From a virus (lineage: Duplodnaviria; Heunggongvirae; Uroviricota; Caudoviricetes): a stretch of DNA of 64,000 bases. A model generated the notes under the pieces. It ran no database searches and was not told where the DNA came from. It was given only the letters and a program-made list of their open reading frames with translations. The stretch lies in the IMG/VR virus record IMGVR_UViG_2654587772_000002; one strand, 5' to 3'. Below, in pieces: positions 41,353-41,439 of the stretch (position 1 is the first letter of the stretch; each line of letters opens with the position of its first letter). A program made the position numbers and the translations under genes.

Positions 41353-41439
41353 GGAGAGTAGGGAGCATGGTGCTCAAGCGGTCTTGAAAGCCGTCCCGTT
41401 GCGCAAGCGATGATGGTTCGATTCCATTACTCTCCGCCA
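41353..41439 (+). tRNA. tRNA-Ser (anticodon TGA), class II with long variable arm
   Basis: 87 nt; acceptor GGAGAGT/ACTCTCC, anticodon loop CTTGAAA, T-loop GGTTCGATTCC, CCA. Confidence 0.6.

Follow-up and report, generated by a model that had tools for sequence, protein, structure and literature searches.

The tRNA island of the P1-like element studied here holds a serine tRNA gene that P1 lacks, and this raises the question of what kind of tRNA it is, how it came to lie there, and what it could do for the element. The window, that is, the whole 64,000-nucleotide stretch of IMG/VR virus record IMGVR_UViG_2654587772_000002, had previously been read from its letters and open reading frames only, and this sequence-only reading claimed an 87-nt tRNA with a long variable arm and anticodon TGA between the Asn/Thr pair and the TerB-like gene. 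ARAGORN called a tRNA-Ser with anticodon tga and a length of 87 nt at exactly that interval and on the plus strand (Table 1), and the neighbors are also as claimed, with the tRNA-Thr gene ending at 40878 and the tciA ORF starting at 41703. Read from the sequence, the anticodon loop has 7 nt (CU-UGA-AA), in which U precedes and a purine follows the anticodon, the T loop (GGTTCGATTCC) conforms to the tRNA pattern TTCGAWY, and the 3' end consists of a discriminator G followed by an encoded CCA. The variable arm is 18 nt long, with a 6-pair stem and a GCAA loop; a stemmed long variable arm, G73, and a serine anticodon, as in a class II tRNA-Ser, are all present. The gene is real but atypical, and our main reading, to which we assign a probability of about 0.7, is that it encodes a functional tRNA-Ser(UGA) with an 8/4 fold that reads UCA and is carried in a cassette swapped among phage-plasmids.

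Table 1. Features of the tRNA-Ser locus. Positions are those of the window, except for rows marked p, which use gene numbering (p = window - 41352).
Feature	Position	Strand	Basis
Divalent C1 repressor operator (P1 Op72/Oban), head of the tRNA operon	40039-40066	.	Motif; P1 annotation
tRNA-Asn(GUU), conserved start of the tRNA island	40725-40800	+	ARAGORN, Rfam
tRNA-Thr(UGU), conserved start of the tRNA island	40803-40878	+	ARAGORN, Rfam
Upstream partner of the direct repeat, 3' end of hairpin 41103-41202	41184-41208	+	Repeat and motif search
Variable cassette, 327 bp, replaces P1 upl/plp-start	41208-41534	+	BLAST against P1 locus; side-by-side sequences
Leader hairpin GTCGG-AGATCAGCA-CCGAC, 13 nt upstream of tRNA-Ser	41321-41339	+	Alignment; repeat; BLAST
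tRNA-Ser(UGA), predicted 8/4 fold	41353-41439	+	ARAGORN; covariation; RNAalifold; RefSeq label on identical sequence
tRNA-Ser acceptor stem	p 1-8 with p 76-83		
tRNA-Ser D stem	p 11-14 with p 20-23		
tRNA-Ser anticodon stem	p 26-30 with p 38-42		
tRNA-Ser anticodon	p 33-35 (41385-41387)		
tRNA-Ser variable arm	p 45-60		
tRNA-Ser T stem	p 61-64 with p 72-75		
tRNA-Ser discriminator G84	p 84		
tRNA-Ser CCA	p 85-87		
Long spacer hairpin, 35-nt arms, starting within the tRNA CCA end	41438-41555	+	Inverted repeat; fold
Direct repeat TGCTCTTACCATTGCGGTGAATGCG	41537-41561	+	Repeat search; motif search in P1, D6, P7
TerB-like tciA ORF	41703-42128		
tRNA with anticodon CAU, homologous to P1 trnI (tRNA-Ile2)	42403-42478	+	ARAGORN, Rfam, P1 annotation

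The fold was analyzed in 38 distinct full-length homologues, which came from a pattern scan of IMG/VR that left positions 8, 60, and 76 free and from loci already collected. The four helices were 98.1% paired across this set and 13 pairs were changed on both sides; none of 500 shuffles matched this pairing and covariation and slid controls were only 40 to 56% paired, so the cloverleaf is beyond chance. RNAalifold, run unguided, returned an acceptor stem of 8 pairs and a T stem of 4 pairs that directly adjoins the variable stem, with compensatory change in 18 of 26 pairs, and for the window's own sequence the 8/4 cloverleaf was 2.7 kcal/mol better than the 7/5 form (-32.8 versus -30.1 kcal/mol). 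In this predicted structure, A8 would pair with U76 to give the eighth acceptor pair, the T stem would be left with 4 pairs, and the variable stem would run into it; with 8 plus 4 pairs, the acceptor/T stack would thus stay at the normal 12. The canonical arrangement of a 7-pair acceptor stem, an unpaired U8, and a 5-pair T stem was not found in this gene, whose 8-pair acceptor stem and 4-pair T stem form a 12-pair branch. On the comparative evidence, we assign the tRNA to the noncanonical 8/4 type and not to the 7/5 type. The earlier description of the gene as a class II tRNA is right with regard to the long variable arm and the serine anticodon, but the fold appears to be 8/4 rather than 7/5.

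A canonical 7/5 class II tRNA-Ser, in which G60-U76 closes a 5-pair T stem and A8 stays unpaired next to a short D loop, is one alternative. ARAGORN draws the gene in this way, G60-U76 is possible in 34 of the 38 homologues, and one divergent homologue, L080, has a clean G-C at 60:76 with A8 opposite C76; this sequence fits 7/5 better, and the lineage is therefore not uniform. However, the rival pair 60:76 (G-U in 31 sequences, G-C in 3, and broken in 4) was never doubly changed, and it was broken in four sequences where 8:76 still pairs. The pair 8:76 was observed as A-U (33 sequences), G-C (2), and U-G (2), with a single break, and position 60 covaried with the base that opens the variable stem (C-G in 32, U-A in 2, and G-C in 2). 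Additionally, the ARAGORN drawing requires a 3-pair D stem and a single linker base, RNAalifold picks 8/4, and the generic tRNA covariance model fails on the gene while the tRNA-Sec model almost passes. We therefore consider the 7/5 fold unlikely.

Other parts of the 8/4 structure varied among the homologues. The discriminator was G in 30, U in 7, and A in 1. Four pairs covaried in the D arm (11-14 with 20-23), and a fifth, A15-U19, would leave a loop of 3 nt; some homologues have a D arm of 5 pairs with an AUGG tetraloop. The anticodon stem has 5 pairs only, as A25 and C43 of the window copy cannot pair. The window allele differs from the common allele by two A-to-G changes, at gene positions 38 and 46, and both convert A-U to G-U, so that pairing is kept.

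The Rfam models gave unusual results for this gene. The cutoffs are 29 bits for the generic tRNA family (RF00005) and 47 bits for tRNA-Sec (RF01852), and at gathering thresholds no family passed in 41300-41500, which means that the tRNA-Ser scores below 29 bits on the generic model. The Asn, Thr, and CAU tRNAs of the window scored 65 to 75 bits on that same model. Thus, the covariance-model check went against the sequence-only reading with regard to RF00005, but ARAGORN, the covariation, and the RefSeq label on an identical sequence nonetheless identify a tRNA. The generic model also missed the homologues in FFH2, Pyxpy02, and Percastrophe and gave only 35.4 bits to the one in Sugarland. The same serine-tRNA body, with A8, a short AUGG-type D loop, and a variable stem abutting the T stem, was found in phages of distant hosts, namely, Klebsiella phage Sugarland, Pseudomonas phage Pyxpy02, and Streptomyces phage Percastrophe; the anticodons in this group are UGA and AGA, and the generic Rfam model misses its members or scores them weakly.

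The best Rfam match of the gene was tRNA-Sec (43.4 bits, E = 1.4e-6), which could suggest a selenocysteine-type or recoding tRNA. The score lies under the cutoff of 47, the anticodon UGA reads the serine codon UCA and is not the anticodon UCA that reads the stop codon UGA, and the acceptor branch has 12 pairs (8/4) versus 13 (8/5) in bacterial tRNA-Sec (Mukai et al., PMC5389517). On these three grounds, the tRNA-Sec reading was rejected as extremely improbable.

The same work describes (8/4) tRNASer from bacteriophages, proteobacteria, and rumen Clostridia, reports that 8/4 tRNAs first came to light among the false positives when tRNA-Sec was searched for, and shows that natural 8/4 tRNAs of serine identity are efficient at inserting serine in E. 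coli (Mukai et al., Nucleic Acids Res 2017, PMC5389517). The near match of our gene to the tRNA-Sec model therefore follows the route by which, in that account, 8/4 tRNAs were discovered (PMC5389517). Judged by its sequence, the window gene is the (8/4) tRNASer of these authors: it shares the 8-pair acceptor stem and 4-pair T stem with a 12-pair branch, the long variable arm, G73 (U73 in some homologues), a serine anticodon, the near miss on the tRNA-Sec model, and the occurrence in phage tRNA clusters and proteobacteria. The match to the allo-tRNA consensus is only partial. Unlike in the allo-tRNAs, the anticodon stem of the window copy is not lengthened (5 pairs, with A25 opposite C43), and the D arm of the lineage, with 4 to 5 pairs and a loop of 3 to 5 nt, is not clearly the long, tRNA-Sec-like stem of 6 pairs with a tetraloop. 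The host gene serT resembles the window tRNA in the anticodon UGA, the anticodon loop CUUGAAA, G73, the long variable arm, and the acceptor pairs G1-C, G2-C, and A3-U. However, E. coli serT is a 7/5 tRNA that has U8 and combines a large D loop with a D stem of 3 pairs, and only 64 of 101 aligned columns are identical between the two.

The gene belongs to a published structural class and has already been annotated. Among complete E. coli genomes, the window tRNA has a single fully identical counterpart, in the E. coli ST2747 record NZ_CP007393.1; window positions 38353-44439 match this record without mismatch, as the rest of the window probably does too, and RefSeq labels the identical tRNA there as tRNA-Ser (CF59_RS26850). 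NZ_CP007393.1 is a chromosome record (2.20 Mb), and it holds the sole chromosomal site among the 334 sites of this tRNA in complete E. coli genomes; the P1-like element inside it reflects either a real integration or an assembly join. In D6 the tRNA-Ser is annotated (NC_050154, H7U15_gt001) with the GenBank remark [quoted passage not shown] and in P7 it lies at the equivalent place but is unannotated in GenBank; both copies are 97% identical to the window copy and have the same location. The copies in D6 and in the RefSeq P1- and SSU5-like records are the same gene (95 to 100% identical, in the same position after Asn-Thr), and none of these records states a fold. Labels in 40 sampled RefSeq records were tRNA-Ser in 38 and tRNA-OTHER in 1, and the remaining one, an incomplete copy, was unlabeled. 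A literature search on the tRNAs of P1-like elements found nothing relevant.

The distribution of the tRNA does not support the proposal that it may be a recent gain. Besides P7 and D6, the same tRNA was found in 340 PLSDB plasmids, in 329 of 5,426 complete E. coli genomes (333 of the 334 sites being on plasmids), in the unrelated SSU5-like phage-plasmids, and in rV5-like phages. Plasmids of 106 to 120 kb made up about half of the sampled carriers, and the one of these that was examined, p4_0.2 (110 kb), is SSU5-like with the array Asn-Tyr-Thr-Ser. P1/D6-like plasmids with the tRNA-Ser came to roughly a third, as estimated from record lengths in the 40-record sample. In rV5-like lytic phages, the tRNA is 83% identical and is shared together with about 80 nt of downstream sequence. 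The gene is also not universal in the family, which would have argued against the proposal in another way: P1 and more than half of the P1-like plasmids do not carry it, and it is therefore dispensable. For comparison, the P1-type upl segment was present in 417 PLSDB plasmids (at least 80% coverage), and the Asn-Thr flank was present in 513 to 738. From these counts, the tRNA-Ser appears as a common, old, and exchangeable allele that is neither universal nor private. In one IMG/VR contig, L105 (approximately 11690 to 11800), the tRNA copy is interrupted in the T loop, with GGTTCGATT on one side of the break and TGAAGTGGTCAACAAAAACTGGCCACC on the other; the interruption may stem from an insertion element or from the integration of an element that targets the tRNA.

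Comparison with P1 showed how the two alleles replace each other. The element is P1-like, with flanks 95 to 99% identical to P1, and its island shares with that of P1 (trnA, trnT, and trnI) the ban operon, the C1 operator, and Asn, Thr, and Ile2 genes of 95 to 99% identity. ARAGORN and the P1 annotation agree that the homologous locus of P1 carries Asn, Thr, and Ile tRNAs only, in line with the sequence-only reading. By BLAST, window 40500-41207 and 41535-42700 align to P1, and the 327 bp between them have no counterpart in the P1 locus, where a segment of 235 bp annotated as upl and the start of plp (L001 2009-2243) lies between the same bracketing repeats. Direct repeats thus bracket the variable segment in the window and in the P1 allele alike, which would explain an exchange of alleles by recombination; with the tRNA-Ser in a repeat-bracketed and swapped cassette, it is also explained why some relatives, such as P1, carry a different insert. 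As P1 keeps both the leader hairpin and the bracketing repeats, either allele, the Ser cassette or upl, could be the older one.

Two stable hairpins are associated with these repeats. The long spacer hairpin (-50 kcal/mol, z -5.4) and its sister at 41103-41202 (-47.3 kcal/mol, z -5.6) each end in TTGYGGTGAATGCG. Downstream of the tRNA, the SSU5-like copy has a different hairpin of 20 perfect pairs (z -7.4), and a weaker hairpin lies after the rV5-like copy; overall, a stable hairpin abuts the 3' end of the tRNA-Ser in three unrelated phage backgrounds. We infer that the hairpins 3' of the tRNA are candidate sites for double-strand-specific processing, with RNase III as a candidate enzyme. Between orf-64 and S, lambda has a segment (44866-44929) with 97% identity to the loop of the window hairpin (41464-41527), and just upstream of this lambda segment lies GTGCTCTTTCCGTTGTGCTGAAT, which is similar to the bracketing repeat. 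From its sequence, this part of the lambda late leader seems to be what is left of the same tRNA-spacer module.

Conservation within the cassette was uneven. Counted from a MAFFT alignment with D6/P7, identity was 97% in both the tRNA and the downstream hairpin and 96 to 97% in the far upstream region, whereas the 145-bp leader adjoining the tRNA is unrelated (39% identity). The short leader hairpin is weak on its own (z -0.56), and it recurs in the otherwise unrelated D6/P7 leader as GCCGG...CCGGC, a compensatory change, and is also kept in P1. The cassette leader (41208-41320) exists in at least two unrelated versions, that of P7/D6 being the common one, and only 21 PLSDB plasmids, the majority of them E. 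albertii plasmids, carry the full 327-bp window cassette, which has the rarer leader variant.

This pattern bears on the possibility that the gene is a nonfunctional relic or a purely structural RNA, serving as a processing signal or recombination target outside translation. A degenerate tRNA-like remnant nearby (40887-40960), the failure of the Rfam tRNA model on the gene, and the interrupted metagenomic copy would be compatible with it. However, compensatory change maintains every helix, hundreds of copies preserve an intact anticodon loop, T loop, discriminator, and CCA, and the tRNA is conserved far better than the leader next to it. We regard a relic or a merely structural element as very unlikely and keep the functional tRNA as the preferred reading.

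The surroundings of the gene are those of the P1 ban operon. The C1 operator at its head consists of a perfect 17-mer consensus at 40039 (+) and a copy with two mismatches at 40050 (-). A simple scan of 39500-43000 found no sigma-70 promoter, so the expression context is based on homology with the annotated ban promoters and operator of P1. Between the C1-controlled promoter and the tRNA genes, a terminator-like hairpin (40232-40251) followed by a T run ends the region 40168-40269, whose P1 counterpart is annotated as dicF-like; DicF was not among the Rfam matches at an E value of 1 or less. The tRNA-like remnant directly after tRNA-Thr has a 13-nt inverted repeat, the T-loop motif GGTTCGAATCC, and a fold z of -3.4, and ARAGORN reported an overlapping tRNA-Tyr(gta) at 40860-40954 at a lowered threshold only. 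An intact tRNA-Tyr lies between Asn and Thr in relatives (Ro157c2YLVW and SSU5-like plasmids). A protein-coding explanation of the region was rejected, as 40880-41700 contains short overlapping ORFs only and the plp homologue is cut to 96 amino acids. In antisense orientation, the plp and upl ORFs of P1 (L001 1650-2219, minus strand) overlap the structured spacer hairpins as well as tRNA-Thr and the tRNA-like remnant, and in the window counterpart (40849-41139, minus strand) plp is the truncated version and upl is absent; the two P1 ORFs may not be genes. Directly upstream of tciA, a match to the Salmonella sRNA STnc100 (RF02076) at 41549-41669 stayed below the threshold (37.8 versus 47 bits, E = 7e-6), and P1 has the same match at 33.4 bits. 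This stretch may form a structured leader at the 5' end of the TerB-like operon. A Rfam scan of the alternative insert of P1 found no family beyond the subthreshold STnc100 match and hairpin look-alikes.

As a working tRNA, the product of this gene would be transcribed together with tRNA-Asn, tRNA-Thr, tciABC, tRNA-Ile2, and ban from the C1-repressed ban promoter once the prophage is derepressed. Its release from the transcript would involve RNase P at the 5' end and a cut of the long hairpin that begins in the CCA end, for which RNase III would be the obvious candidate. The host SerRS would then charge it with serine through the long variable arm, G73, and the acceptor pairs that it shares with serT, and EF-Tu would deliver it to the ribosome, adding decoding capacity for UCA as well as for UCG and UCU. 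The terminator-like hairpin between the ban promoter and the tRNAs and the sigma-70 scan that found no promoter count against this reading.

Codon usage was compared between 51 long ORFs of the window and 32 annotated core genes of the same strain, since the gene had been proposed to be tuned to the codon usage of the element. UCA was used at 12.6 per 1,000 codons in the element (18% of the serine codons) versus 5.5 per 1,000 in the host genes (9.3%), an enrichment of about 2.3-fold. ACA (14.6 versus 5.2) and AUA (10.6 versus 2.4), which are read by the other tRNAs of the element, were likewise more frequent in the element than in the host. serT was present in 5,425 of 5,426 genomes with a median of one copy, and the UCA enrichment together with this single-copy host gene fits a supply role. 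However, AGA, AGG, and CGA are as enriched in the element or more so, relative to general E. coli reference values, and the element has no tRNA for AGA, AGG, or CGA, so the codon enrichment is not specific. Additionally, P1 is approximately 97% identical and presumably has the same codon bias, and yet it lacks the tRNA-Ser; codon tuning therefore does not discriminate between the alleles. Of the tuning proposal, the higher use of UCA in the element holds, but this does not single out the gene, given that P1 manages without it.

A second possible role is counterdefense, in which the gene would mainly provide a replacement or decoy tRNA that escapes cleavage or inactivation of tRNAs by the host or a competitor, with codon supply being secondary. 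Phage tRNAs that neutralize tRNA-targeting defenses are established for other isoacceptors. The tRNA-Ser is kept in four unrelated lineages (P1-like, SSU5-like, rV5-like, and T5-like Klebsiella phages) and adjoins genes annotated by homology as colicin/tellurite resistance, both of which would fit such a role. However, host serT has exactly the same anticodon loop, CUUGAAA, so that a loop-reading nuclease would cleave the two tRNAs alike, and counterdefense is thus not favored. The analysis also identified no E. coli defense system against tRNA-Ser(UGA), and P1 and many relatives do without the gene. We consider counterdefense as the main role to be quite unlikely, and UCA decoding by a functional 8/4 tRNA-Ser remains our preferred reading.

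A broader speculation, which we hold to be similarly doubtful, is that the 8/4 tRNA-Ser and its long 3' hairpin may form an independent RNA cassette that recombines at conserved spacer repeats and so passes between unrelated coliphage lineages, and that the noncanonical tRNA body may have been selected to escape an activity that targets or regulates tRNAs, and not simply to supply UCA decoding. Such a cassette would cover the P1-like, SSU5-like, and rV5-like coliphages together with the lambda relic, and the activity in question could be that of the host or of a rival.

These results are of practical use mainly for annotation. Generic tRNA covariance models overlook this tRNA-Ser lineage, the P7 GenBank record is without the gene, and the plp and upl ORFs of P1 lie antisense over a seemingly structured, noncoding tRNA-cassette region. 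Overall, about 6% of complete E. coli genomes carry what appears to be a natural 8/4 serine tRNA on a phage-plasmid, and this tRNA would be a convenient native system for studying how E. coli enzymes handle 8/4 tRNAs.
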